This document shows, in pieces, positions 1 through 43,984 of a stretch of 49,715 bases of DNA. Below the pieces are notes generated by a model. It was not told where the DNA came from. It did not search any database and saw nothing but the letters and a program-made list of their open reading frames with translations. The position numbers were made by a program, and so were the translations under genes. The stretch is from the sequence record MZ501085. The stretch is one strand, 5' to 3'. Every line of letters begins with the position of its first letter. The stretch's first letter is position 1. This DNA comes from Escherichia phage JohannLBurckhardt.

Positions 1-531
1 ATGAGCAGAGAAGAAAAACAAAAGCCCTTCACGGCTTACAACTTCAAGAAGCTATATAACAAGCAATATGGCGACATTGCCACTCTAGGCAAGCAACACC
101 GATACACGCCGGAGCAGGTTTTTAATCTTGCGGTCAAATACTTTGAGTGGGCGGAGTCCAACGCACTAAAGGCGGCTGAATCTTCATCGTTCCAGGGTCG
201 CACTTACCAGGACGAGGTAAACAAGCCGCGCGTTTTCACGTTCAACGGTCTGCGCCTGTTTTGCGGCTGGTCGCGCTGCGCTATGGAGAAGTGGAAGAAA
301 GAGCCTGGCTTCTCTGAGGTCATGGAGTTTATCGAATCCGTGATCTATGAGCAGAAATTCCAGCTTGCGGCTAACGGCGTGATTAACGCTGCATTCATCG
401 CCAAAGACTTGGGAGTTGACCAGCCGACGCAAATCAACGTTAGCGCAAACTCCGAGTCAAGCGCTGCAATCGCAGAGGTTGGGGCTGATGAAGTGCGCGA
501 GGCGGTTCGTGATATCCTGGCGGAGATCTGA
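1..531 (+). CDS. putative terminase small subunit
   Basis: 176-aa ORF ending 2 nt before the large-terminase ATG; size and position typical of TerS; its SD lies at the 3' end of the window (permuted record). Confidence 0.55.
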   Translation: MSREEKQKPFTAYNFKKLYNKQYGDIATLGKQHRYTPEQVFNLAVKYFEWAESNALKAAESSSFQGRTYQDEVNKPRVFTFNGLRLFCGWSRCAMEKWKKEPGFSEVMEFIESVIYEQKFQLAANGVINAAFIAKDLGVDQPTQINVSANSESSAAIAEVGADEVREAVRDILAEI

Positions 532-533
532 TT

Positions 534-2105
534 ATGCTGATATGGGAAGATTTAACAGTGGCGCAGAAACGCGCCATTAAAGAAATGAGTGAATACTCTT
601 TTGAGAAGATGATCCGAATCTGGTTCCAGTTGCTACAGGGTCAGAAATTCCTGGGTAACTGGCATTTCAGTTATTTGTGTCATGAGGTGGAGAAAATCAT
701 TTCCGGCGAGTCGCAGAACGTGATCTTTAATATCACTCCAGGCTCAGGCAAAACTGAGGTTTTCTCGATCCATATGTCGCCATATGCGTCACTGAAAAGC
801 AGGAAGGTGCGAAACCTTAACTTGTCATTCTCTGATGGACTTGTCCAGCAGAACAGCAACCGGATAAAAGAAATTATAGGCTCCCCAGAGTGGCAGGAGT
901 TATGGCCTGGAAAGCTGGCAAAAGCAAGCGCGAAAGATCTGATTGTTCAGGACGGTAACGGCAAGGTTAAATTGCAGGTCAACTCTCGCTCCATAGGCGG
1001 ACAGGTAACTGGTTTGCGTGGCGGCTATATGGATGATGGGTTTACCGGAATGTTGGTGCTTGACGATCCAGATAAACCTGACGACATGTTTTCAAAGGTG
1101 CGGCGCGAAGCGATTCACAACCGCTTAAAAAATACCGTCCGATCTCGTCGAATGAAGGACACAACGCCTATTGTGATGGTTCAGCAGCGGCTACACGTCA
1201 ACGATTCGACATGGTTTATGACTAGCGGCGGCATGGGTGGCATTGAGTTTAAAGTTGTAAGCATTCCGGCACTGGTCACGAAAGAGTATGGCGATTCACT
1301 CCCTGATTGGTTAAAGCCAGAGTTTGAGCGTGACGTGCTGAATAGCGAGCCAGTTTACATTGACGGCGTGGCGCACTACTCTTTCTGGCCTGCAAAGGAG
1401 AGTGCAAAGGACTTGCTCGCGCTACGCGAAGCTGATCCATATACTTTTGCGTCTCAGTACCAGCAGCAGCCAATAGCTCTGGGTGGCAACGTATTCAAGG
1501 TGGATTGGTTCCAGTTTTACGGCGACGGCGAGAAATGCACGCTACCGAAACCGGATCGCTTTGAATATACGTTTATCACTGGCGATACGGCGCAGAAAGC
1601 CGGAGAGCTTAACGACTACTCTGTTTTCTGTTATTGGGGAATGTTCAAGAATCGCGTTTACTTCATTGACGGCATCCGTGGAAAGTGGGAGGCTCCAGAT
1701 CTTGAAACCAATTTTAAGGCGTTTGTCAATCAGTGCTGGAAGCGTAATAAAGAGTGCGGAAGCTTGCGACGGATCCACATAGAGGACAAAGCGAGCGGTA
1801 CGGGGCTTATTCAGGGTGCGCAAAAGAGCTTGCCTATTGATATAAATCCCGTTCAGCGCAGCACGGACAAAGTTACCCGCGCAATGGATGCCGCGCCAGT
1901 TATGCGAGCCGGACGCGTTGCGCTGCCAGAGAGTCACCATATGTTAAACGAGATTCTCGCAGAGGTAGCGGCTTTCACTTTCGACGACTCGCACCCGAAC
2001 GACGATATCGTAGATAACATCGTTGATGCGGTTAACGTTGAAATGAACCTTGCAGACGATCCAGTGGCGCGAATGAAAAAGCTTGCTGGGCTACGGAAGA
2101 AATAG
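534..2105 (+). CDS. terminase large subunit
   Basis: 523 aa; N-terminal Walker A-like NITPGSGKT; follows TerS-like gene; acidic C-terminal nuclease-like half. Confidence 0.85.
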   Translation: MLIWEDLTVAQKRAIKEMSEYSFEKMIRIWFQLLQGQKFLGNWHFSYLCHEVEKIISGESQNVIFNITPGSGKTEVFSIHMSPYASLKSRKVRNLNLSFSDGLVQQNSNRIKEIIGSPEWQELWPGKLAKASAKDLIVQDGNGKVKLQVNSRSIGGQVTGLRGGYMDDGFTGMLVLDDPDKPDDMFSKVRREAIHNRLKNTVRSRRMKDTTPIVMVQQRLHVNDSTWFMTSGGMGGIEFKVVSIPALVTKEYGDSLPDWLKPEFERDVLNSEPVYIDGVAHYSFWPAKESAKDLLALREADPYTFASQYQQQPIALGGNVFKVDWFQFYGDGEKCTLPKPDRFEYTFITGDTAQKAGELNDYSVFCYWGMFKNRVYFIDGIRGKWEAPDLETNFKAFVNQCWKRNKECGSLRRIHIEDKASGTGLIQGAQKSLPIDINPVQRSTDKVTRAMDAAPVMRAGRVALPESHHMLNEILAEVAAFTFDDSHPNDDIVDNIVDAVNVEMNLADDPVARMKKLAGLRKK

Positions 2106-2132
2106 CACGAATTGCTAAAAGCGTGTACAATA

Positions 2133-2160
2133 AAGGCTGGACTTTTCCAGCCTTTATTAT
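2133..2160 (+). terminator. stem-loop with weak T tract after terL
   Basis: AAGGCTGGA-cttt-TCCAGCCTT followed by TATTATT. Confidence 0.45.
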
Positions 2161-2176
2161 TATGGGAGATCAGATA

Positions 2177-3451
2177 ATGACCGAGAAAACAAAACTCGTT
2201 AAGGCTGACGGCTACAACGAGATCTTTAAGGGAGAGCAGCGAGTAGAGACGCCATTTTATATGCAGGGCGGCGTTGCAAAACAAAGTCTTGCAACATTCT
2301 ACGAGCGTGACGGCATGGCGAAGCGAATCATCGACGTTATCCCGGAGGACATGGTTACGCCAGGCTTTAACGTTGACGGTGTGAAAGACGAGGCAGCATT
2401 CCGCTCTTTGTGGGATGAAAAGAAGCTAAACGCTAAAATCATTGACGCGCTTTGCTGGTCGCGCTTGTTTGGCGGCTCCGCCATTGTCGCAGTTATCAAC
2501 GATGGGCGCATGTTGAAATCTCCAGTTAAAGAAGGAGCGCCACTTGAAGATATTCGCGTTTATGACCGATTCCAGATCCGAGTTGAGAAGCGAGAAACAA
2601 ACGCGCGTAGCGTGCGCTACGGCGAGCCTGTTTTGTACACCATCATGCCAGGCGGCGAGATTCCAGAGTATCAGGTGCATTACACGCGAATCTGCATCAT
2701 TGACGGAGAGCGCTTGCCTAACGAGCAGCGCCGGAAAAATGATGGTTGGGGTGCGTCAGTCCTCAACAAGAAGCTGATCGAAGCAATCCACGATTACAAC
2801 TATTGTGAGGAGTTAGCAACTCAGCTTTTGCGACGCAAGCAGCAAGCAGTTTGGAAAGCTAAAGGACTCGCGGATTTGTGCGACGATGAAGAAGGTGTGT
2901 CGGCGGCGCGGCTGCGATTGGCTCAAGTTGACGACGAGGGCGGCGTTGGTCGGGCAATCGGCATTGACGCAACGGACGAGGAATATGAGGTGCTTAACTC
3001 TGATATTTCCGGCGTAGACGCTTTCCTTGAGAAGAAAATGGATCGCATCGTTTCGCTTACTGGCATCCATGAAATCATCTTGAAGAACAAAAACACCGGA
3101 GGCGTTAGCGCAAGCCAAAACACCGCGCTTGATACATATCACAAGCTAATTGAGCGCAAGCGCAAAGAGGACTACAAGCCGATCCTGGAGTTCCTCTTGC
3201 CATTCATGATCGCAGAGCAAGAATGGTCTATTTCGTTTGATCCGCTTTCGGTTCCAAGCAGCAAAGACCAGGCCGAGATCTTGAATAAAAACATTGACTC
3301 GATCAGTAAGGCGATTGAAGGTCAGTTTATGGATGTTGAGGAAGGACGCGACACATTGCGCTCTATTGCTCCGTCTCTTAAACTGAAAGACGGAAACAAA
3401 ATCAAGCTACCGGAGCCGGAATCTGAGCCGGAGCCAGGAACGGAGGTATAA
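2177..3451 (+). CDS. portal protein
   Basis: 424 aa directly after terL; ATG 2177 chosen (GGAG 9 nt upstream); the GTG 2123 start of the track ORF would contain the hairpin 2133-2160. Confidence 0.75.
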   Translation: MTEKTKLVKADGYNEIFKGEQRVETPFYMQGGVAKQSLATFYERDGMAKRIIDVIPEDMVTPGFNVDGVKDEAAFRSLWDEKKLNAKIIDALCWSRLFGGSAIVAVINDGRMLKSPVKEGAPLEDIRVYDRFQIRVEKRETNARSVRYGEPVLYTIMPGGEIPEYQVHYTRICIIDGERLPNEQRRKNDGWGASVLNKKLIEAIHDYNYCEELATQLLRRKQQAVWKAKGLADLCDDEEGVSAARLRLAQVDDEGGVGRAIGIDATDEEYEVLNSDISGVDAFLEKKMDRIVSLTGIHEIILKNKNTGGVSASQNTALDTYHKLIERKRKEDYKPILEFLLPFMIAEQEWSISFDPLSVPSSKDQAEILNKNIDSISKAIEGQFMDVEEGRDTLRSIAPSLKLKDGNKIKLPEPESEPEPGTEV

Positions 3452-21158: not shown

Positions 21159-21194
21159 AATGCCACCTCACTAGTTTGCTTGTTAAGTGCATTT

Positions 21195-21223
21195 AATATA
21201 CAGGCGTGGCGTAATCATTTCAA
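21195..21223 (-). promoter_or_regulatory. sigma70-like promoter for - strand cluster
   Basis: On - strand TTGAAA - 17 nt - TATATT about 37 nt upstream of ATG 21158. Confidence 0.45.
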
Positions 21224-21343
21224 TAACAAGTGAGAATCCTTGCCGTTATTGTTTTTCTTGTTTCTCGGTGTTCTCTATTGCACCCACCGCAGAATCGCAC
21301 AACGTTTCAGAACAGAAAAAACAAATAAATCATCTATAATATA

Positions 21344-21384
21344 TAATAAAATCAATAGTTTAGTTTATATGTATTTGTATATTG
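21344..21384 (+). repeat. AT-rich conserved block, copy 1 (direct repeat with 40699..40737)
   Basis: TAATAAAATCAATAGTTTA identical 19-mer plus similar flanks in both AT-rich intergenic regions. Confidence 0.7.
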
Positions 21385-21606
21385 TTATTTATTGTTTCCA
21401 CTGTTTCAGTGTTAATTGATGCACTGGCTTGCTTTCGTCTGGATATCTCTATTAGCCATTTGATGTGTGTATTTATATAAACCCCACCGCAAATCCGCGA
21501 ACAATGAAACAAAAAATAACGACGTTTAAAATCATGCACTTAATCGCTGATTTTGTTATCTTGGTTGAAAGATGCGTTTCGAGAACAGAAAAAACAATTG
21601 ATGGTA

Positions 21607-21634
21607 TTGACTAAACGCCACAAATGGCTACAAT
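21607..21634 (+). promoter_or_regulatory. sigma70-like promoter for recombination module
   Basis: TTGACT - 16 nt - TACAAT, about 30 nt upstream of ATG 21665. Confidence 0.55.
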
Positions 21635-21664
21635 GCACGTATACCAACACACAGGAGCGAAAGA

Positions 21665-35689: not shown

Positions 35690-37267
35690 TCACCCCATTA
35701 AAGCAGGATTCACAAACACGCGCCCATTCGTGAGGCATACGTAATTAAGATCTTCAAGGATTGGAAGCAAGTGATCCTCAATTCGCTTCATCACACCAGC
35801 CTGACCCAGGAACGGACGAACCTTGCGCACGGATTCGTAAATCGCCCGTGCAGTGATAGCGCCCTTATTGGCTTTTCCGAGCCTTGTTATCGTGTCGATA
35901 ATCTTGATCAACTCCGCATCCTGACCAGCATGACCGGAAGCATTTGCAGCGCTGATGTAGGTCTTGCTCAACTCCTGGAACATCAAGAGCGCCTCCTGCA
36001 TCGTCTCAACGTCAATCTCTCGTGACTTTGTGGCGGTTCCGTTAACATCCTGCCAGTTTCGGATCGTGTGAATAACGGATGCCAGGCGAATGACTTGTTT
36101 ATCCATTTTACCCAATGCGCCGCGTAGCATGGTGTGAGAATATTCTCCTCCGTCTGCAAGCTTTGGCTCCATTTCCTGGCGTGCAATGTTGAGCACCCGC
36201 ATAGCGGAGCGGCTAACCTTCAATGAAACGGATTGCTCCGTCATGATATTGTGGATCAGCTTGTAATAGTCCGCTTTAAGACCTGCATCAACTGGCGTGT
36301 AGGTTGTGTCTCCTTTGTCGTCAACAAACTTACGGCGGCCTAAGAATGATTCCTCTCGCACAAGCAAGAAACGTTCAGAAACACCGATACCACGAGCACC
36401 AGCCTCCATAATGCCGCTGATTGTTTCGTCCTGCGCAATCACAGCCATGCAACCTAGAGCCGTAAAGCTCATGTTGTTTTCTGCATTTGCACGGGCGATG
36501 GAAACGTGACCGCTATCCCAAGCCTTTAGCACCAATTCGCTGTTAGTCTTGCGCTCGCTATTGGCGTATGTCAGTCCGAGCAGTGAGTTGATACTTGTTG
36601 CCTCGTCCGAGATAACAGCAAAGTTACCCTGGCGAAAGTTGATTTTAGCCAAACCCTCTGGAGTGGTATCTGAAACAGGAAACACAACGTCGCACAGTTT
36701 AGCCAGCTTTTCCTCGTACTCCTCTTTCTCCTCGTAAAGCGCAGCGTACTCAGTGCCGGAGCGCTCGCTCTTTAATTCCTTTGCGATCCCGTTGAGTTTC
36801 GCCTGAATCTTTTTGCGCTCTTTCTTGCGTTGCTCGTTGATTCGCTCAACCTCTGCAACAATCGGAGCAATCGCCATTGAGTTGATCGCAGATTTACCAG
36901 TAGACGGCGGCTGGCTTGTAACAACGTATAGCGCCGTTGGCTGATCGGTTCCGTGGTATTCAACGGAGAATCTCCCGAGCATCGCGGCAGACACGCAGCC
37001 TACAAAGTGCATATAGGCAGATGAAACAGGGAATTGCACAGACTCCGCCAGGCTGCGAGACAACTTGCCTACAACGTCGCAATCGTTGCCGAGGGAAATA
37101 ACAGGGTATTTGTCGTTTCCGCTGTTAATGTCCTTCACGTCACCCCAAAAACCAGACGAGCGAGAGTATCCGTTTGCCTGGATTGCAACCTTAACGGCGC
37201 TCAAGCCTTGAGCCTCAGCCGTTGAAATGATTTGTTGTGGTGTCAGCGTGGATTGTTCAAAAAACAT
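35690..37267 (-). CDS. P-loop NTPase (putative replication/helicase-type protein)
   Basis: 525 aa; Walker A SQPPSTGKSA and Walker B-like VISDEAT; RBS AAGGAG; downstream of motif site n. Confidence 0.5.
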   Translation of the reverse strand: MFFEQSTLTPQQIISTAEAQGLSAVKVAIQANGYSRSSGFWGDVKDINSGNDKYPVISLGNDCDVVGKLSRSLAESVQFPVSSAYMHFVGCVSAAMLGRFSVEYHGTDQPTALYVVTSQPPSTGKSAINSMAIAPIVAEVERINEQRKKERKKIQAKLNGIAKELKSERSGTEYAALYEEKEEYEEKLAKLCDVVFPVSDTTPEGLAKINFRQGNFAVISDEATSINSLLGLTYANSERKTNSELVLKAWDSGHVSIARANAENNMSFTALGCMAVIAQDETISGIMEAGARGIGVSERFLLVREESFLGRRKFVDDKGDTTYTPVDAGLKADYYKLIHNIMTEQSVSLKVSRSAMRVLNIARQEMEPKLADGGEYSHTMLRGALGKMDKQVIRLASVIHTIRNWQDVNGTATKSREIDVETMQEALLMFQELSKTYISAANASGHAGQDAELIKIIDTITRLGKANKGAITARAIYESVRKVRPFLGQAGVMKRIEDHLLPILEDLNYVCLTNGRVFVNPALMG

Positions 37268-37972: not shown

Positions 37973-38015
37973 ATAATAGCGGATCTTATCGACCCGCTTT
38001 TAACAAAAAGTGCTA
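37973..38015 (-). promoter_or_regulatory. palindrome-type promoter element (site o)
   Basis: On - strand TAGCA-ctttt-TGTTA, 22 nt, TATTAT in AGCGG/CCGCT hairpin; leader CAAACGAAAGGAG. Confidence 0.6.
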
Positions 38016-38726
38016 TTTTGAGTTAGCCAGCCATACAGCAATAGCCAGGCCGCGAGGAGTGAGCGAGCGAATCAGTTTTGTTCGCGCTGATTTACCGCCT
38101 AATTTCTTCCAGCCTGGATTGTCATTCCCAACCGGATACACTGGCAAAGCCTCAGGCATCACAAAGCCGTTACCAGTCCAAAGGCAAGTTTGCTTATTGT
38201 AAGCGTCACTCGCTGGGATGATATCAGGAAAGGCAGGGTGAGCTTCATCCTTGATATGGATGTAGCCGCCATAGTCGCACGGATGGAATTTATGATCCGG
38301 CTTGCGCCATAGCGTTGACAGCTTGCCTACAGGGTTTTCGATCATGTACGGCACGCCGAAATGATCAGCAATGTCAGCCGCAATCTTGCAGGTGTTTGCC
38401 GCCTCAACCTGGAATTTCGGATTCAACTCAGCTTTGCGCTTCCAGTGGCGAGAGCCGGAGTTAGCCAGGTCTGTGCATGGCGGGAATGCCATAATGAAAT
38501 CAGGCTTGCCGTAAAATTCCATTTGCGCACGGTGGCGGAAATCGCTGTCAATCCATGCGTTAACATATTCGATGTTCGGATGCGTTACGCGCACTGATTG
38601 GTACGATCCGTGATCACCTTTATCGGCATTAAAGCAAATCACTTTGTAACCAGCTTTCGCCCACGGCAGAGCCGCATAGCCGGAGCCGTCGAACATTGAG
38701 AAAACCAGACCTTTGATGTTGTTCAT
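38013..38726 (-). CDS. putative DNA (cytosine-5)-methyltransferase
   Basis: 237 aa; motif order FSMFDGSG (motif I-like), PPCTD (PC motif IV-like), ENP (motif VI-like) with C5-MTase-like spacing; short for the family. Confidence 0.5.
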   Translation of the reverse strand: MNNIKGLVFSMFDGSGYAALPWAKAGYKVICFNADKGDHGSYQSVRVTHPNIEYVNAWIDSDFRHRAQMEFYGKPDFIMAFPPCTDLANSGSRHWKRKAELNPKFQVEAANTCKIAADIADHFGVPYMIENPVGKLSTLWRKPDHKFHPCDYGGYIHIKDEAHPAFPDIIPASDAYNKQTCLWTGNGFVMPEALPVYPVGNDNPGWKKLGGKSARTKLIRSLTPRGLAIAVWLANSK

Positions 38727-38736
38727 TTTTTAACCC

Positions 38737-39021
38737 TCAGAATGGGAAGCAACGCTTGCAAGCCGGATCGAATTCACAGCCGCAGTCATTTACAATCATG
38801 GTTGGATCGGCAAACATCGCTCCGCTTTCCATATCCATATCCATATCGCCAAGCGCATCATCCAGCGTGCGCAGTTTATAAGCAACCTCAAGCGCTGCCT
38901 CTTTATTCAGTCCAGCAGCCTCCGCTTCATGTAGGCGGGCAAAGAAACCATCTTGTACCACAATTTTCTCCTCTAAACTGGCGGCGCAATTGCCGCCTTT
39001 AAACCAATCAGGACTTATCAA
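38737..39021 (-). CDS. hypothetical protein (acidic, Cys-containing C-terminus)
   Basis: 94 aa; coupled to upstream gene. Confidence 0.5.
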   Translation of the reverse strand: MISPDWFKGGNCAASLEEKIVVQDGFFARLHEAEAAGLNKEAALEVAYKLRTLDDALGDMDMDMESGAMFADPTMIVNDCGCEFDPACKRCFPF

Positions 39022-39245
39022 GCTTTCCAGGTTTCGATATACATCGAATTTTCATCCAGGAAGTTAATCACGTCTTGCTTGCTGTACTGGCGCAGGGTGC
39101 AGCGCGGTGATGTTCCAACGGTGTAGCAGCCTTTACCCTCGGTGATGGTCACTTGCTTGATTTTCTCGCCTGGGATGTCGCACTTGATGATCACGCGATG
39201 GTGGCTATCAAGGGTTTTCATGATGTTTTCGGTTTTGAGTTTCAT
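39018..39245 (-). CDS. hypothetical protein
   Basis: 75 aa; RBS GAGGA; first gene after motif site p. Confidence 0.5.
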   Translation of the reverse strand: MKLKTENIMKTLDSHHRVIIKCDIPGEKIKQVTITEGKGCYTVGTSPRCTLRQYSKQDVINFLDENSMYIETWKA

Positions 39246-39276
39246 TCGTTTATCCTCGTTCGTTGTTGATGGCGCT

Positions 39277-39319
39277 ACTATAACGGGACGAAGCGCCGGA
39301 GTTTTAACAAAAAGTGCTG
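39277..39319 (-). promoter_or_regulatory. palindrome-type promoter element (site p)
   Basis: On - strand CAGCA-ctttt-TGTTA, 22 nt, TATAGT inside GGCGC/GCGCC inverted repeat; TGA stop of upstream gene abuts motif. Confidence 0.55.
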
Positions 39320-39586
39320 TCAGTTGTAGATAACACTTTTAATCTTCTTGATCTCGTCAACTAGCTCTTGTTCGTCGTGAATCATGGAGGGCGAGCACTC
39401 CCAACAAGCGGAGGGAAGTTTCTTGTTCTTGCCCTTAATCAGAAAGCCGCCCATTAACTCCCAATTGCAGATAAGGCGATCATCACGCATATCGTACAGG
39501 TTGAACAGGTTGCGACGCTCGCCACTAACGTAAATCTTCACCCCATTGTTGCGGCAGAATACGCGCAATTCTTTCGTCGCTCGCAT
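39320..39586 (-). CDS. hypothetical protein
   Basis: 88 aa; coupled. Confidence 0.5.
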   Translation of the reverse strand: MRATKELRVFCRNNGVKIYVSGERRNLFNLYDMRDDRLICNWELMGGFLIKGKNKKLPSACWECSPSMIHDEQELVDEIKKIKSVIYN

Positions 39587-39780
39587 TATTCACTCTCCAG
39601 TACAGTAACAGGTTCCAGGCGCTCCAGTACAACTTTAAAATCCGCAAAGAATGTCGGCCTACGTTCGGTTAGCTCGGTATAGGTGTCAATCGCTAGAGTT
39701 GCGCGATCACCTTCATAGCACACCACACGCTTTCCACCTGCGCGGCTGATTGCCACCACGCGATAGGTATTCTTGATCAT
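39586..39780 (-). CDS. hypothetical protein
   Basis: 64 aa; ATGA overlap. Confidence 0.5.
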   Translation of the reverse strand: MIKNTYRVVAISRAGGKRVVCYEGDRATLAIDTYTELTERRPTFFADFKVVLERLEPVTVLESE

Positions 39781-39980
39781 TAAATAACCTCCATAACAGT
39801 ATGCTCGTCACCAGCCAGTGACCAGAGAGTGTTAGTAAGTTGCTTCACTTTCCAGGTGAGGCCGGAGTGATAGCAGACCATTTCCTCAAGGTCGATTGTG
39901 ATCTCAATGCCTTTCTTGAAGATTCCAGGCGTCAGCTCTGGATTGCGGCGAATAACTTTAGCGTCTATCTGGTCTTGCAT
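39780..39980 (-). CDS. hypothetical protein
   Basis: 66 aa from ATG 39980 (RBS GAGGAA); longer track ORF start would lie inside the promoter element. Confidence 0.5.
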   Translation of the reverse strand: MQDQIDAKVIRRNPELTPGIFKKGIEITIDLEEMVCYHSGLTWKVKQLTNTLWSLAGDEHTVMEVI

Positions 39981-40012
39981 TTTTGATTCCTCAGTTTCGT
40001 TTTGTTGAGGCA

Positions 40013-40055
40013 ATGATACCGCATCGCATCTGACTGGTTTTAACAAAAAGTGCTA
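40013..40055 (-). promoter_or_regulatory. palindrome-type promoter element (site q)
   Basis: On - strand TAGCA-ctttt-TGTTA, 22 nt, TATCAT; leader CAACAAAACGAAACTGAGGAA. Confidence 0.6.
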
Positions 40056-40334
40056 TCACTTCATCATATGCAGATTGTTAGCGATAAACTTGACAACTTC
40101 ACGCAGTTGCTTTTCGTCAAAGATAGTCGCTGGCAATTCTTCTTTCAAATCCTGGTGCAGATAAACGTTTCCGTGCCAGGCGAGTTTGTCATGCTCGATG
40201 CGATAGCTACACATCCACTCACAATCGTTGTCAGCTTCCCAAATGCACAGAGCGGTGTAGTCGCCCAAATCCTCAACGGTTAACTCAATGCCGCGTTTCT
40301 TTGCCATGTTGAAAGTGGTCTTGCTGATGTTCAT
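40056..40334 (-). CDS. hypothetical protein
   Basis: 92 aa from ATG 40334 (RBS GAGGAAAA). Confidence 0.5.
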   Translation of the reverse strand: MNISKTTFNMAKKRGIELTVEDLGDYTALCIWEADNDCEWMCSYRIEHDKLAWHGNVYLHQDLKEELPATIFDEKQLREVVKFIANNLHMMK

Positions 40335-40365
40335 TTCGTTTTCCTCAGTTCGTTTCGTTGAATGC

Positions 40366-40409
40366 ATTATGACAAATCCTATCCGCTCTTTTTTTAGCAA
40401 AAAGTGCTA
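40366..40409 (-). promoter_or_regulatory. palindrome-type promoter element (site r)
   Basis: On - strand TAGCA-ctttt-TGCTA, 23 nt, CATAAT; leader TTCAACGAAACGAACTGAGGAA. Confidence 0.55.
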
Positions 40410-40424
40410 TTTAATCGGTAGTCA

Positions 40425-40525
40425 GTGATTTTGATGATTGCTTGACCACTTTTGCAATGATGTTTTTGATGTCCGTCAACTTTTGTGTGATTGTGATGAT
40501 TGTTGATGTTTTTTGATGTGATTTG
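40425..40525 (+). repeat. degenerate short tandem repeats (TGATG / TTTTGATG units)
   Basis: gattttgatgattg...caatgatgtttttgatg...gattgtgatgattgttgatgttttttgatgtgatttgaatg in AT-rich noncoding region. Confidence 0.5.
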
Positions 40526-40698
40526 AATGTGGGAATCAGCATGGCCTGGCGGTGTCGTTTTTGCGCTCTCGAAAACTCCGCCCTGTTATCTTCTGTTTGC
40601 ACTCGTTTCCTCTTGTTACCGAAAGTACGGTGGCGTAGTTTGTTCGTGTTTTTCGCGTAGCAGAAACAAAAAAAACTTTTAATTACCCTATAAACAAC

Positions 40699-40737
40699 TA
40701 ATAAAATCAATAGTTTATTTATATATATTATATTTGT
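40699..40737 (+). repeat. AT-rich conserved block, copy 2 (direct repeat with 21344..21384)
   Basis: TAATAAAATCAATAGTTTA identical 19-mer plus similar flanks. Confidence 0.7.
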
Positions 40738-40995
40738 TTTCACTACGTTATACTTGTTCCATATGGTATGGGGTGGTTATGGGATTTTATTATTGGTGGT
40801 ATTGGTTAATTTATAGGCATGTTCCGCTCAGGATGTGTGCGATTCATCATTTCGTTGTGGTTGCTTTGGGTGACATATACATATTTATTATGTCCTCCGA
40901 AAAAACTGTAACGGCTGTAACATGCAAAAAACAGAATTTATAATCATAAAAATCAACAACTTGCGATAAATTTTGTTTTTCGGCTCAAAAAAAAC

Positions 40996-41024
40996 TTGTG
41001 GAAACCGATTGTAACATGCATAAT
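40996..41024 (+). promoter_or_regulatory. candidate sigma70-like promoter for right-hand early operon
   Basis: TTGTGG - 17 nt - CATAAT; leader CACGAAACGAAC then GGAGG and ATG 41057. Confidence 0.4.
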
Positions 41025-41056
41025 GCACCACGAAACGAACAAGCGGAGGTAAAACT

Positions 41057-41482
41057 ATGTCAGATCAATCATTTGGCGATCAGTTGCGTGCAGCGGCGAG
41101 AATGTTGGCGAGTGGTGAGCGTGATGAGATTATCATGACCGACTACCAGTTACAGCAAGCGTCCGGCAGGGAGAAAATCAACCCAAGCCATATCCGTACA
41201 ACTATGGCGCGAGAGGTTCGCACCCTGGGAGCTATCAGCGTGAAGCGCATCACGGATCCGATTGGGTACGTTTGCACATTCAACCCTGACCCAAAAAAGC
41301 GAGCGATTGCCAGCGACGAGCTACCAGCAATCAAGGCGCGTGCGACTAACAAAGCACTGAAAGCGATTGCAGACGTGATGCCAAACCTCACAGACCTGGA
41401 GGGCGAGCAGTTGCAGGGTGCTATCATTGCGGTGCAGCGCTACCAGGATTTAATCAAGAAGCAAATCAACGAGGAGGTTTAA
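41057..41482 (+). CDS. hypothetical protein
   Basis: 141 aa; RBS GGAGG; first gene after AT-rich region. Confidence 0.55.
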   Translation: MSDQSFGDQLRAAARMLASGERDEIIMTDYQLQQASGREKINPSHIRTTMAREVRTLGAISVKRITDPIGYVCTFNPDPKKRAIASDELPAIKARATNKALKAIADVMPNLTDLEGEQLQGAIIAVQRYQDLIKKQINEEV

Positions 41483-41484
41483 TT

Positions 41485-41745
41485 ATGTGCAACGAGAAAA
41501 TCGATCAGCTTGTAGACGAAATCATTGAGGCGCACGACCGCGCCGGATTCAACTCTATCTTTATGGTATGCCCTGACGCTTTCGGCATTACAGAAAGCGA
41601 GCTTAAAGAGGCGGTTGAGCAGGTGGAGTCCGTACTCCGAACCGATAACTCTGGTGACGAAATCTTTTCAGCCTTGACTGCTTGCGATGGTGGCGGAGTG
41701 TTTACTCTTTCGCTTGTTAACGCAAACACGATCCTGACCATCTGA
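41485..41745 (+). CDS. hypothetical acidic protein
   Basis: 86 aa; strongly acidic. Confidence 0.5.
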   Translation: MCNEKIDQLVDEIIEAHDRAGFNSIFMVCPDAFGITESELKEAVEQVESVLRTDNSGDEIFSALTACDGGGVFTLSLVNANTILTI

Positions 41746-41753
41746 TTGGTAAA

Positions 41754-41796
41754 TAGCACTTTTTGCTAAAACAGCCCCGCGCGAGTGGGGCATAAT
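41754..41796 (+). promoter_or_regulatory. palindrome-type promoter element (site g)
   Basis: TAGCA-ctttt-TGCTA, 22 nt, CATAAT; leader CTCAACGAAACGAATTGAGGAG. Confidence 0.6.
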
Positions 41797-41829
41797 GCAC
41801 TCAACGAAACGAATTGAGGAGACTGCAAA

Positions 41830-41985
41830 ATGTTTACACTGATTACCTGGGAGCACGAAAACAGCGAGCCAGTATCCGTAACATACGATTGGCTGGCTCA
41901 GTGCTACAATATCGCCAAAAACGGTGGTTTCTACAAAGCGCAGATTGTTAACGAATTTGGGGTTGTTGAGTATGAGTTTCATTAA
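41830..41985 (+). CDS. small protein (51 aa)
   Basis: ATG 7 nt after GAGGAG, first ORF after site g; not in track (<60 aa). Confidence 0.4.
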   Translation: MFTLITWEHENSEPVSVTYDWLAQCYNIAKNGGFYKAQIVNEFGVVEYEFH

Positions 41986-42181
41986 TGCATGTGACGTCAA
42001 GCCTGGCGTTGTGTACCGCTCAAAATACACAGATCGGCTGTGGCGCTGGGATGGTGCAACTATGTGGACGAAAGGCGCGGGAGATGTGATTTGGCATGAA
42101 TCCGGCTGGCCTCACCCAACAATGACGCGCAAGGACATCGCTTATTATCTGGCAGTTGGCGAATTCGAGGAGGTTAAATAA
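41972..42181 (+). CDS. hypothetical protein
   Basis: 69 aa from ATG 41972, overlapping end of previous small ORF. Confidence 0.45.
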   Translation: MSFINACDVKPGVVYRSKYTDRLWRWDGATMWTKGAGDVIWHESGWPHPTMTRKDIAYYLAVGEFEEVK

Positions 42182-42369
42182 TGCTCAAGACGGTTCACCC
42201 TGACACGCACGGCGACGAAATGAGAATCTACGGGCGGCATGACAAGATCCACATTGACGGATGCTTTGACGGCGAGCGAATCGCCTGGCGTGGAATATAC
42301 ACGCATAAGCAAGCGCGTGAGATTGCAGAGAGACTTAACGACCTTGCAGACATTATGGAGGGCAAATAA
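42181..42369 (+). CDS. hypothetical protein
   Basis: 62 aa; TAATG overlap. Confidence 0.5.
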   Translation: MLKTVHPDTHGDEMRIYGRHDKIHIDGCFDGERIAWRGIYTHKQAREIAERLNDLADIMEGK

Positions 42370-42554
42370 TGATCAGATTCAACGTTGACTATCCAGGCTT
42401 TATTGCTGGCAAGACCTATCAAGCGAAATACGCAGCGCACCCATTCTACGGCTACCTTGCAATCAAGGTTGTGGACGAGGACGGCGATGCGCGTTACCTG
42501 GCGATTGAGTTGCTGGAGGACGGATCCATTGTTGAGGTGGATGATGAAGATTAA
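42369..42554 (+). CDS. hypothetical acidic protein (MK.IR / AGK.Y family)
   Basis: 61 aa; FIAGKTYQ motif; acidic C-terminus. Confidence 0.5.
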   Translation: MIRFNVDYPGFIAGKTYQAKYAAHPFYGYLAIKVVDEDGDARYLAIELLEDGSIVEVDDED

Positions 42555-42894
42555 CGCACAAGCACGCAACTACGCGCTAAAGCACGGGATTCACATCTAC
42601 GGACTGACCAACGAGCAGAGCCGCGCCTTGGTTTTCTACGATATCGCCAGCGGAACAAAGCTATGCACTTACAAGAGCTACAGCGATGATAACCCATTGC
42701 AGAAGTCGCTCAACTACAAGATGAAGCCGGAAACCTGGCAAGCGATGCCGGATGATATCCGCACGGCTCAGGGTGTGCAAAAGGCAATCGAGGCTATGGT
42801 TGCAACTGGCACGGCGCGACCGCTGGACGAGGACGAGCTAGCGGAGGCACGCAACAAGATCCTCAGTCGGTCAACTGGAGTTAAGATCATATGA
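42541..42894 (+). CDS. hypothetical protein
   Basis: 117 aa from ATGATG 42541 (RBS GAGGTGG); N-terminal extension in track overlaps previous gene. Confidence 0.5.
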   Translation: MMKINAQARNYALKHGIHIYGLTNEQSRALVFYDIASGTKLCTYKSYSDDNPLQKSLNYKMKPETWQAMPDDIRTAQGVQKAIEAMVATGTARPLDEDELAEARNKILSRSTGVKII

Positions 42895-42955
42895 GCAGTT
42901 GGCACAATGAGCACGTCATGCAATTCTACCGCCAAAGGATAAAGAAAATCCTCAA

Positions 42956-42998
42956 TAGCACGAATTGCTAAAACACCAGATCGGGGTTGCGCTATAGT
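42956..42998 (+). promoter_or_regulatory. palindrome-type promoter element (site h)
   Basis: TAGCA-cgaat-TGCTA, 22 nt, TATAGT inside GGGGT/ACCCC inverted repeat; leader ATCGAAACGAAAC. Confidence 0.6.
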
Positions 42999-43034
42999 AA
43001 CCCCATCGAAACGAAACACGCTGAGGAGCACAAA

Positions 43035-43202
43035 ATGAAATCTCGCAAATACCGCAACATCTTCAACAACCTGACATACTGGCTGGAGGACGGCGCTGTC
43101 ATGGTTAGCAACGGCGAGCAAACAAATAAATCGCTGTTAAGCGCAGAGGAGTTTTTCATTGCGGTAGGCCGTGACGTTCTGGTACTGATTGAGGGGGAAT
43201 AA
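43035..43202 (+). CDS. small protein (55 aa)
   Basis: ATG 43035 after GAGGAGCA; first ORF after site h. Confidence 0.45.
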   Translation: MKSRKYRNIFNNLTYWLEDGAVMVSNGEQTNKSLLSAEEFFIAVGRDVLVLIEGE

Positions 43203-43205
43203 TAC

Positions 43206-43448
43206 ATGCTGTCAATTCGAAACTGGTTTATGCGCTTCATCGGGAAAGAGGTTGAGGCTTTCGGCTACAACATTCCGGCAAACTTCAAGCGTGCCTGCCC
43301 TGGCAATGCCAGCGGGGTTTATTGGGAAATGCCAGACGGCACATACTGGTTCACGATAATTTCTGGAATGCCGATCCAGGTTAGTGAGCGCGACTATGAG
43401 CGCGGGACGTGGTTTAAAGCAATGCTTGAAGTAGGGGAGGAATTTTAA
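43206..43448 (+). CDS. hypothetical protein
   Basis: 80 aa. Confidence 0.5.
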   Translation: MLSIRNWFMRFIGKEVEAFGYNIPANFKRACPGNASGVYWEMPDGTYWFTIISGMPIQVSERDYERGTWFKAMLEVGEEF

Positions 43449-43984
43449 TGATCAAATTTGAGCTTTGGGGTTACACGTACCATCTGCGCGGCACTTACGG
43501 CGTTGCAATCGTTGACCTGGACGGCACGCTTTCTGACGGCACGCACCGATTGCACCTGCTACCAACAAAGGACTTGCACCTCACCGAAAGTTGGAGCGAG
43601 TTTAACAAGGCTGCTGTAAACGATAAGCCGATTCAGAGCACGATTGATGTTGTGCGTAACCTTTGGCGTGCTGGAATGGGCGTCGTTATCCTGACTGGTC
43701 GCAGTGACGAGGTGGAAACCGACACTATCCTTTGGCTCGACCGCCACAAGGTGAAATATGACTGGCTTATCATGCGCCGCGCAGAGGATAACCGCAAAGA
43801 CACCGTTATCAAAGAGGAGGTGTTGCGTGCAATCGGTCTGCATCATATTACGTGCGCCTTTGACGATTCGCCAAACGTGATCAGCCATTTTCGCAGCCTG
43901 GGAATCACAACCTATCAGGTGACGGAATACGACAAGCCGCACTCTCATTTACAGAGTCACGGCGTGGATGAATTAGATGGATAA
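43448..43984 (+). CDS. HAD-superfamily phosphatase (polynucleotide 3'-phosphatase/nucleotidase-like)
   Basis: 178 aa; motif I VDLDGTL (DxDGT), later ILTGR and FDD motifs. Confidence 0.6.
   Translation: MIKFELWGYTYHLRGTYGVAIVDLDGTLSDGTHRLHLLPTKDLHLTESWSEFNKAAVNDKPIQSTIDVVRNLWRAGMGVVILTGRSDEVETDTILWLDRHKVKYDWLIMRRAEDNRKDTVIKEEVLRAIGLHHITCAFDDSPNVISHFRSLGITTYQVTEYDKPHSHLQSHGVDELDG

Follow-up and report, generated by a model that had tools for sequence, protein, structure and literature searches.

What does an array of short repeats do in the intergenic interval that separates two divergently transcribed gene blocks of a T1-like phage? The question is raised by the genome of Escherichia phage JohannLBurckhardt (sequence record MZ501085), a complete T1-like siphophage genome of 49,715 bp (Drexlerviridae, Tempevirinae, Henuseptimavirus), which was analysed at its full length and is called the window here. 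Its non-coding span at 40338-41056, which lies between divergent promoters, holds a run of TGAT-type repeats and an AT-rich block. An earlier note on this DNA had called the repeats iteron-like and had suggested paired origin or promoter functions for this interval and for a second AT-rich region at about 21.3 kb. We favour a different answer for the repeats, which probably form the pac recognition element of a small terminase subunit (TerS) of the P22 gp3 family. The interval as a whole is best explained as the left-end control region of a T1-like packaged genome, in which divergent promoters, array and AT-rich block adjoin each other.

A repeat array that is unique in the genome

40425..40530, + strand: TGAT(G/T)/TTGAT repeat array; unique genome maximum of motif density, conserved; proposed pac recognition (TerS-binding) element

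TGAT(G/T) motifs, all of them on the + strand, start at positions 40426, 40432, 40435, 40458, 40467, 40488, 40494, 40497, 40504, 40514 and 40519. This amounts to 11 motifs per 110 nt, compared with a genome mean of 0.45 per 110 nt. The genome-wide density peak is single: all 17 scanning windows with 11 motifs overlap the array, and no second locus comes near. The run of degenerate short repeats that the earlier note had marked at 40425-40525 is therefore real and unique in the genome. The right half of the array (40490-40529) consists of four tandem 10-mers, ATTGTGATGA, TTGTTGATGT, TTTTTGATGT and GATTTGAATG, whereas the left cluster (40425-40472) is looser than this phased half. When the whole window was scored against the consensus of the four 10-mers, a score of at least 31 was found at the array only. 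Tandem Repeats Finder reported periods of 9-10 at the array, and the longest two-copy repeat within it is 16 nt long with a spacing of 62 nt. A purine-rich box, GAATGTGGGAATCAG, lies at its right edge (40525-40539). By genome-wide motif density, the array is not present in the other AT-rich region (about 21.3 kb, referred to as region 1) and hence does not belong to the sequence common to both; its absence from this paralogous region is what a single pac site would lead one to expect.

The interval is 88-94% identical to the corresponding DNA of the Escherichia phages BubbaBully, IsaakIselin and Henu7 and of Enterobacter phage AS5, all of which belong to Henuseptimavirus. In seven genomes of this genus the array is free of insertions and deletions, including Samwise and N5822, which diverge directly to the right of it. 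For a survey of the family, 80 loci were fetched, anchored on TerS homologues of 44-100% identity. The locus-wide density peak of TGATT/AATCA/GATTG/CAATC was found within 200 nt of a leftward 21-nt element, described below, in 36 of 70 terS-anchored loci (TerS identity 45-100%), a count to which many of the other loci could not contribute as they stop short of the junction, while in a few the array is present and the element pattern was missed. In loci that do reach the junction, the highest concentration of TGATT/GATTG (or AATCA) motifs stands just past that 21-nt element. TGATT/GATTG-rich arrays occupy the same junction across the Drexlerviridae, in every lineage examinable, and in related loci the homologues of the array lie 7.3-9.8 kb upstream of terS.

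Within the genus the array occurs as two haplotypes, which are 70% identical over 40411-40545. Haplotype A is found in the window, BubbaBully and N5822, haplotype B in IsaakIselin, Henu7, AS5 and Samwise. Both retain the motif number, the fourfold phased repeat of the right half and the purine box. The haplotypes do not track the similarity of the flanks or of TerS, which suggests a small mosaic or hypervariable segment.

Genome ends of relatives lie at homologous arrays

1..531, + strand: terS; match to Pfam family GP3_package (PF16677), E = 8.5e-14, 52 bits against a cut-off of 29.4
534..2105, + strand: terL, directly following terS

On the circular map, the array and terS are about 9.3 kb apart, with the terminase genes downstream of the array. 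We compared the position of the array with the genome ends reported for related phages. Position 1 of the T1 record lies inside the T1 array and is the start of an annotated terminal repeat_region of 2800 bp (1..2800); its basis was taken from the GenBank annotation only. Position 1 of the TLS record also lies inside the array of that phage, and according to the TLS genome paper it represents the pac assignment obtained by restriction mapping of the submolar pac fragment. Both positions are located about 45-55 nt inside the respective arrays. For MSK (Braunvirinae), a forward terminus determined with PhageTerm has been published at 36,862, which, assuming that the published coordinate follows the numbering of the GenBank record, is 14 nt to the right of the purine box GAATGAAAG that closes the MSK array. 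The genome of UDF157lw (Rogunavirinae) was re-opened at its PhageTerm terminus, and its position 1 lies 6 nt to the right of the same GAATGAAAG box. Furthermore, the record of GS71 (Tlsvirus) starts at the right edge of its own array, and its authors state that it was validated with PhageTerm.

The reported ends of T1, TLS, MSK and UDF157lw are located in the homologous array or at most about 15 nt from its right edge. The chance that a random coordinate in a genome of about 45 kb falls within 100 nt of the array is approximately 0.4%. An identical 17-mer, GCAATGATGTTTTTGAT, is present in the array of the window and in that of MSK, and these two arrays are therefore homologous and not just analogous.

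Logan contigs that carry the region run through the array unbroken and are uninformative on termini. The start of the Sazh record, about 170 nt to the right of the array, was not used, because the paper is silent on packaging. A BLAST coverage profile of the interval across loci was dominated by a multi-copy promoter element and was likewise uninformative.

The predicted packaging start and the points that weigh against it

40480..40560, + strand: predicted zone of the first packaging cut, by homology only; right part of the array, box GAATGTGGGAATCAG and about 20 nt beyond

We prefer the pac reading, and hold it to be rather likely, because the ends of relatives coincide with homologous arrays, because the array is unique and conserved, and because the phage encodes a headful terminase. 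The phased TTGAT/T-tract repeats would be bound by an oligomer of the P22-gp3-family TerS, and the large subunit encoded by terL would make the first cut in the array or just to the right of it, at about 40480-40560. Headful packaging would then proceed rightward via the AT-rich block and the operon that begins at 41057. The start would thereby be placed between a putative leftward promoter, with an extended -10 after a 21-nt ATAGCAC...TAAAA element, and a putative rightward one composed of an A-tract, TTGTGG, 17 nt and CATAAT.

Several points weigh against this proposal. The packaging ends come from relatives and not from virion DNA of JohannLBurckhardt. The starts of T1 and TLS rest on restriction mapping, and the final base of the TLS position was, according to the TLS paper, picked by its resemblance to the P22 pac; the assumption on coordinate numbering made for MSK also has to be counted here. 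The P22 pac core has no match in the array, and its best matches, which have 1-2 mismatches, are found in other parts of the window at chance level. The ATATA repeats of the AT-rich block are an older proposal for the T1 pac, as cited in the MSK paper. The array is located about 55-160 nt upstream of the leftward -10, where a transcriptional role is possible. In addition, the window and Henu7 have TerS proteins that are 100% identical and arrays that are 70% identical, while the 511 nt adjoining the array are 93.5% identical. Comparison of the two haplotypes gave an identity of 0.69 inside the motifs and of 0.71 outside, i.e. the motifs are not better conserved than the DNA around them. Finally, the core consensus for IHF (integration host factor) that is found in the AT-rich block is kept in most of the block homologues of the Tempevirinae but in only 5 of 40 distinct loci of the family.

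Two candidate statements were given up on these grounds. The claim that the conserved positions of the array are its motifs was dropped in view of the identities inside and outside the motifs, and the IHF consensus is ruled out as a family-wide feature by its count among the 40 loci.

As arrays of 70% identity occur together with identical TerS, any recognition would have to read motif content, phasing, DNA shape or mainly the conserved right half. Alternatively, the left half of the array may serve another role, for example at the leftward promoter.

The divergent promoters flanking the array

40335..40374, - strand: leftward promoter core and leader; promoter predicted from sequence
40392..40412, - strand: copy of the T1-family 21-nt intergenic repeat (consensus aaATAGCACnnnTTGnTAAAA, exact at 40392-40410), 20 nt upstream of the leftward -10
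2102, 28340, 30832, 32031, 40392 (-) and 41753: example copies of the 21-nt element among 24 sites
40986..41059, + strand: rightward early promoter and leader; sequence and position conserved, predicted promoter
40916..40963, + strand: distal rightward elements; repeats, promoter-like site and IHF-consensus match

Along the minus strand, the elements follow one another as aaATAGCACTTTTTGCTAAAA (40412-40392), 20 nt, the extended -10 TGTCATAAT with its hexamer at 40366-40371, GCATTCAACGAAACGAAC, GAGGAA and ATG. The leader motif ACGAAACGA is located at 40350-40358, the ribosome-binding site GAGGAA at 40341-40346 and the start codon at 40337-40335. The TG-N-CATAAT of this putative promoter is invariant in seven relatives. 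The 21-nt element, ATAGCACNNNTTGNTAAAA, is present in 24 copies in the window compared with 1.72 expected, nearly all of them oriented with the local genes. These elements sit 20-23 nt upstream of a -10-like hexamer, which is too far for the TTG of the element to act as a normal -35. The TLS paper, which leaves their function open, lists them as DR1-DR18; by position, the copy at 40392 is homologous to DR18.

Might the array then serve this promoter? It could consist of binding sites for a phage or host protein, or of intrinsically curved DNA, that act as operator or enhancer of the leftward early promoter and have no packaging role. The array begins 15 nt past the 21-nt element and covers the distance from the -10 given above, its T-tracts are phased on the 10-bp repeat as is typical of curved upstream activating DNA, and across the Drexlerviridae it always accompanies the leftward 21-nt element. 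Moreover, its sequence is free to vary while TerS stays identical. On the other hand, the other 23 copies of the 21-nt element have no such array, and a role in transcription only leaves four or five independently reported genome ends at homologous arrays unexplained. We therefore regard a purely transcriptional array as unlikely, although it is the best of the alternatives; the transcriptional and the packaging role are mutually compatible.

The rightward promoter is composed of an A-tract CAAAAAAAAC (40986-40995), which directly precedes the -35 and resembles an UP element, the -35 TTGTGG (40996-41001), a 17-nt spacer and the -10 CATAAT (41019-41024). It is followed by the leader ACGAAACGA at 41030-41038 (the same GCA..ACGAAACGAAC leader as on the leftward side), the ribosome-binding site GGAGG (41045-41049) and the ATG at 41057. 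In Samwise and N5822 the -35 at this position is TTGACA, the consensus sequence, and the promoter is the homologue of P01 of TLS (523..549), one of just three sigma-70-type promoters predicted for that phage. A generic promoter scan yielded 3 sites compared with 3.3 expected by chance and left TTGTGG-17-CATAAT unscored, because its -35 matches 3 of 6 consensus positions. Nevertheless, the proposal of the earlier note that this is the promoter of the gene at 41057 is borne out by positional conservation, the TTGACA of the relatives and the homology to P01; the transcription starts on both sides of the interval remain predictions of this kind. A literature search found no transcriptome of any T1-like phage.

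The distal elements comprise CTGTAAC/TGTAACATGCA repeats (repeat D4), a third copy of which lies at 41010-41023, and a promoter-like GTAACA-16-TATAAT at 40917-40944. As a promoter the latter is doubtful, since its TATAAT is not conserved in Henu7 or AS5.

The -10 and leader of the leftward and rightward promoters are inverted copies of each other (inverted repeats I17/I18); at 40350-40371 and 41019-41038 the divergent core promoters repeat the unit CATAATGCA-N(2-4)-ACGAAACGA in opposite orientation. In related loci, the ACGAAACGA leader motif is found again before many ribosome-binding sites.

Over 40392-43982, the sequence of the window is reproduced without a difference in two Logan contigs, SRR28231190_17 and SRR28231191_2. 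The first is without 39323-40036 of the window (714 bp), the second without 38019-40391 (2373 bp). Both junctions lie exactly in copies of the 21-nt ATAGCAC...TAAAA element, and the repeats in this segment (37998-40410, minus strand) therefore delimit cassettes of genes in the leftward early block which are subject to loss or gain.

In phages of the T1 group, a second leftward 21-nt element is located directly to the right of the array (T1 103-121); the window has none. If the 21-nt elements are promoters, leftward transcription in the T1 group would cross the putative pac site.

The AT-rich block and its paralogue

40660..40810, + strand: AT-rich conserved block, paralogous to 21290-21430, with family-wide matches and a putative function
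40705..40717, + strand: AATCAATAGTTTA, match to the IHF core consensus WATCAANNNNTTR within the shared 19-mer; candidate site
40951-40963, + strand: AATCAACAACTTG, second match to the IHF consensus; candidate site

The block starts about 130 nt from the right end of the array and has a GC content of 25.5% over 40660-40800. Within it lie an A-tract (40660-40676), a -10-like TATAAA (40689-40694), a 19-mer (40699-40717), ATATAT and TGTT...GGT motifs; A-rich elements are found at 40660-40676 and at 40925-40936. The 19-mer, TAATAAAATCAATAGTTTA, occurs exactly at 40699-40717 and at 21344-21362, as the earlier note had seen, and forms part of a longer paralogous module, since the similarity of the two regions extends to 79% over 66 nt (40665-40729 compared with 21311-21375, E = 1.8e-7). 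Both AT-rich regions have an A-tract, a -10-like TATAAA/TATAAT, the core AATCAATAG(T/G)TTA, ATATAT and TGTT..TGTT..GGT, and in both a second AT-rich box, an AAAATCA(A/T)NNNCTT motif, another A-tract and a sigma-70-type promoter follow about 150-200 nt further. Region 1 (21.2-21.7 kb) precedes a recE homologue that is 59% identical to TLS recE over 79 residues. In TLS, the same module is located upstream of recE, where the predicted promoter P51 lies, and upstream of gp01. The block is matched by about 90 other Drexlerviridae records.

Matches to the IHF consensus number 6 in the window compared with 2.75 expected, and 8 of 100 shuffled sequences contain at least 6; three of the six lie in the two AT-rich regions, at 21350, 40705 and 40951. 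Binding of IHF at these candidate sites would be a feature of this lineage. Most likely, the AT-rich module is upstream architecture of early promoters or serves DNA bending and is not specific for pac.

The pairing of the two AT-rich regions suggested in the earlier note thus stands, with a paralogous module before a sigma-70-type promoter in each of them and the same arrangement in TLS. Its reading of the repeats as iterons does not. In this explanation one replication origin would be made up of the repeats and the AT-rich block together, and the other AT-rich region would hold a second origin as its partner. The direct repeats do lie about 130 nt from a stretch of 25.5% GC, the AT-rich module is duplicated, there with no array, at 21.3 kb beside recombination and replication genes, and the TLS paper treats the replication origin of T1-like phages as unknown. 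However, the repeat units are 5-10 bp and not 17-22 bp long, a DnaA box (TTWTNCACA) is found in neither AT-rich region, and the array is missing in the supposed partner region. The TLS authors report neither iterons nor an O-like initiator (the genes of the window were not exhaustively screened for an initiator), and the reported genome ends of relatives map at the array. An iteron origin is accordingly quite unlikely; the AT-rich block alone may serve as an origin.

A further explanation accepts a pac site in the interval and places it in the ATATA block (40700-40730), following a former proposal for T1, which would make the TGAT array incidental. Five ATATA repeats figure as the T1 pac in the proposal as the MSK paper cites it, and no other part of the interval can be aligned as widely as the block. 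It also has the IHF consensus, a feature that can be likened to those of lambda cos and P1 pac. Yet a second copy of the block exists at 21.3 kb without any reported packaging start there, and the PhageTerm termini of MSK and UDF157lw are located 120-200 nt to the left of the AT-rich blocks, at the edge of the array. Furthermore, the MSK authors state that the ATATA motif is absent in MSK and Rtp. We consider this placement slightly less likely still than the iteron origin and keep to the array as the probable pac element.

The interval is non-coding

The GC content of 40338-41056 is 35.9%, compared with 48.6% genome-wide. On the left, the interval is bordered by the last leftward small gene (40056..40337), which matches PHROG 6147 with E = 5e-40 if started at 40337. 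On the right, the rightward operon begins at 41057 with a DUF7174 gene (PF23796, E = 5.6e-32). The AT-rich non-coding interval had been delimited in the earlier note as 40410-41056; its character was confirmed, and its left limit is really 40338, because the PHROG 6147 alignment places the ATG of the leftward gene at 40337. The features described there (repeat run, 19-mer, A-rich elements and TTGTGG-17-CATAAT) were all found where they had been placed.

The minus-strand open reading frame 40411..40743 is broken by an in-frame stop codon in 5 of 6 relatives and carries a 1-nt insertion or deletion near its start. Compared with the other haplotype it shows 38-39 substitutions, which fall 14/13/11 on codon positions 1/2/3, i.e. 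without position bias. Searches of the reading frames of the interval against PHROG and Pfam gave nothing significant, with one marginal PHROG match at E = 0.009. The sole frame that is open across the array in all seven genomes has no start codon, and it is open because CATCAAA-type repeats are without stop codons. No gene is annotated in the interval in IsaakIselin, Henu7 or TLS, nor by the gene calls on the Logan contigs, and more distant homologues of the block carry frame-shifting insertions and deletions. That 40411..40743 (-) and 40734..40943 (+) are real small genes is thus very improbable, even though some pipelines call short, mutually discordant coding sequences here in BubbaBully, AS5 and N5822 and the + strand frame would encode a hydrophobic peptide; the earlier note was right to set both frames aside.

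At the RNA level, Rfam gave no match in the whole window at the gathering threshold, nor in the region at E <= 1, and no tRNA or tmRNA was found. Folding of eight segments on both strands gave RNAs no more stable than shuffles (z -1.0 to +1.4). The reading of the interval as non-coding and regulatory is supported.

Comparison with known packaging sites and origins

The left ends of T1 and TLS lie in the same place as the interval, with the leftward block of small genes on one side and the rightward early operon on the other, and show the same order of leftward 21-nt element, TGAT-type array, AT-rich block and sigma-70 promoter (P01 in TLS). In contrast to the arrays of the genus, those beyond it can be aligned by motif content only, and the T1 group differs by extra TATTCC/GGAATA repeats and the additional 21-nt element on the right side of the array.

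With P22 the window shares a TerS of the same Pfam family (GP3_package, PF16677) and probably headful packaging from a preferred site. The P22 pac is located inside the terS gene, whereas the candidate here lies in non-coding DNA 9.3 kb upstream of terS and is an array of repeats about 110 bp long; the P22 pattern, a sequence like GAAGATTTATCTGAAGTCGTTA inside terS, is thus not what the window shows. GATTT-containing motifs recur in the array, and the TLS authors, who describe the P22 pac as a single asymmetric sequence of 22 bp, remarked on AGATTT.

Multiple short TGAT repeats with an IHF-consensus site nearby, in a genome that encodes a DNA methyltransferase, recall phage P1. The P1 pac consists of clusters of the hexamer TGATCA/G that flank the cut, together with an IHF site, and is controlled by Dam methylation. 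Unlike P1, the span 40338-41056 contains no GATC, compared with 304 sites genome-wide (6.1 per kb), and P1-type Dam control is therefore excluded for the array of the window. In addition, the terminases are unrelated and the repeats here lie mostly on one side of the predicted cut. GATC is also missing from the other AT-rich intergenic region (21162-21664), and the arrays of T1 and TLS carry 2-3 GATC sites.

The pac of SPP1 (pacL/pacR boxes) and lambda cosB (R sites and the IHF site I1) adjoin the terminase genes, and the cut at lambda cos is precise. Both systems use phased short TerS boxes on bent DNA beside the cleavage site, in lambda with a host bending protein, and by analogy the array might work in a similar manner. 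The TerS families differ, and the array of the window is remote from the terminase genes. Iteron origins such as lambda ori and those of theta plasmids are similar in that direct repeats lie near an AT-rich segment; they differ in unit length, the window has no DnaA boxes in its AT-rich regions and no recognised initiator gene, and the genome ends of relatives map at the array.

In the literature consulted, some of it as cited by others, the T1-family pac was derived from restriction mapping and P22 resemblance (AGATTT) or from ATATA, and a phased array is not described. Published assignments of the pac sequence disagree, AGATTT by analogy to P22 against ATATA repeats, and place it only roughly. 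The modest addition made here is a description of the probable T1-family pac as an array of phased repeats at whose right edge the cut would fall.

A wider picture can be drawn, which we offer as a speculation that is doubtful as a whole. The T1-family pac would be a distant landing pad, 9 kb from terS, on whose phased repeats a gp3-type TerS settles, and would be read by phasing or DNA shape and not by base sequence. This read-out is proposed because arrays of 70% identity serve a TerS of 100% identity. Early transcription could gate the first cut, a possibility raised by the position of the array between divergent early promoters. The twin AT-rich modules of about 450 bp with an IHF-consensus core would be replication origins or IHF-dependent enhancers.

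T1-like phages are notorious contaminants of laboratories and fermentations, generalized transducers and candidates for phage therapy. If the pac reading is true, it provides a concrete terminase-binding target and makes the pseudo-pac sites that drive transduction predictable. It would also allow genome records to be oriented consistently and would aid the engineering or disabling of T1-like phages. The paired AT-rich modules and the 21-nt repeats bear on questions raised by the TLS authors, namely the organisation of transcription in T1-like phages and the role of the 21-nt repeat.

One of the genomes used here has an unusual record. That of Enterobacter phage N5822 (MW032452) is given as 'circular' and 78 kb, about 1.6 genome lengths for the Drexlerviridae, and the array region is matched in it at about 1.7 kb and again at 53.4 kb; the record looks like an assembly with a partial duplication.

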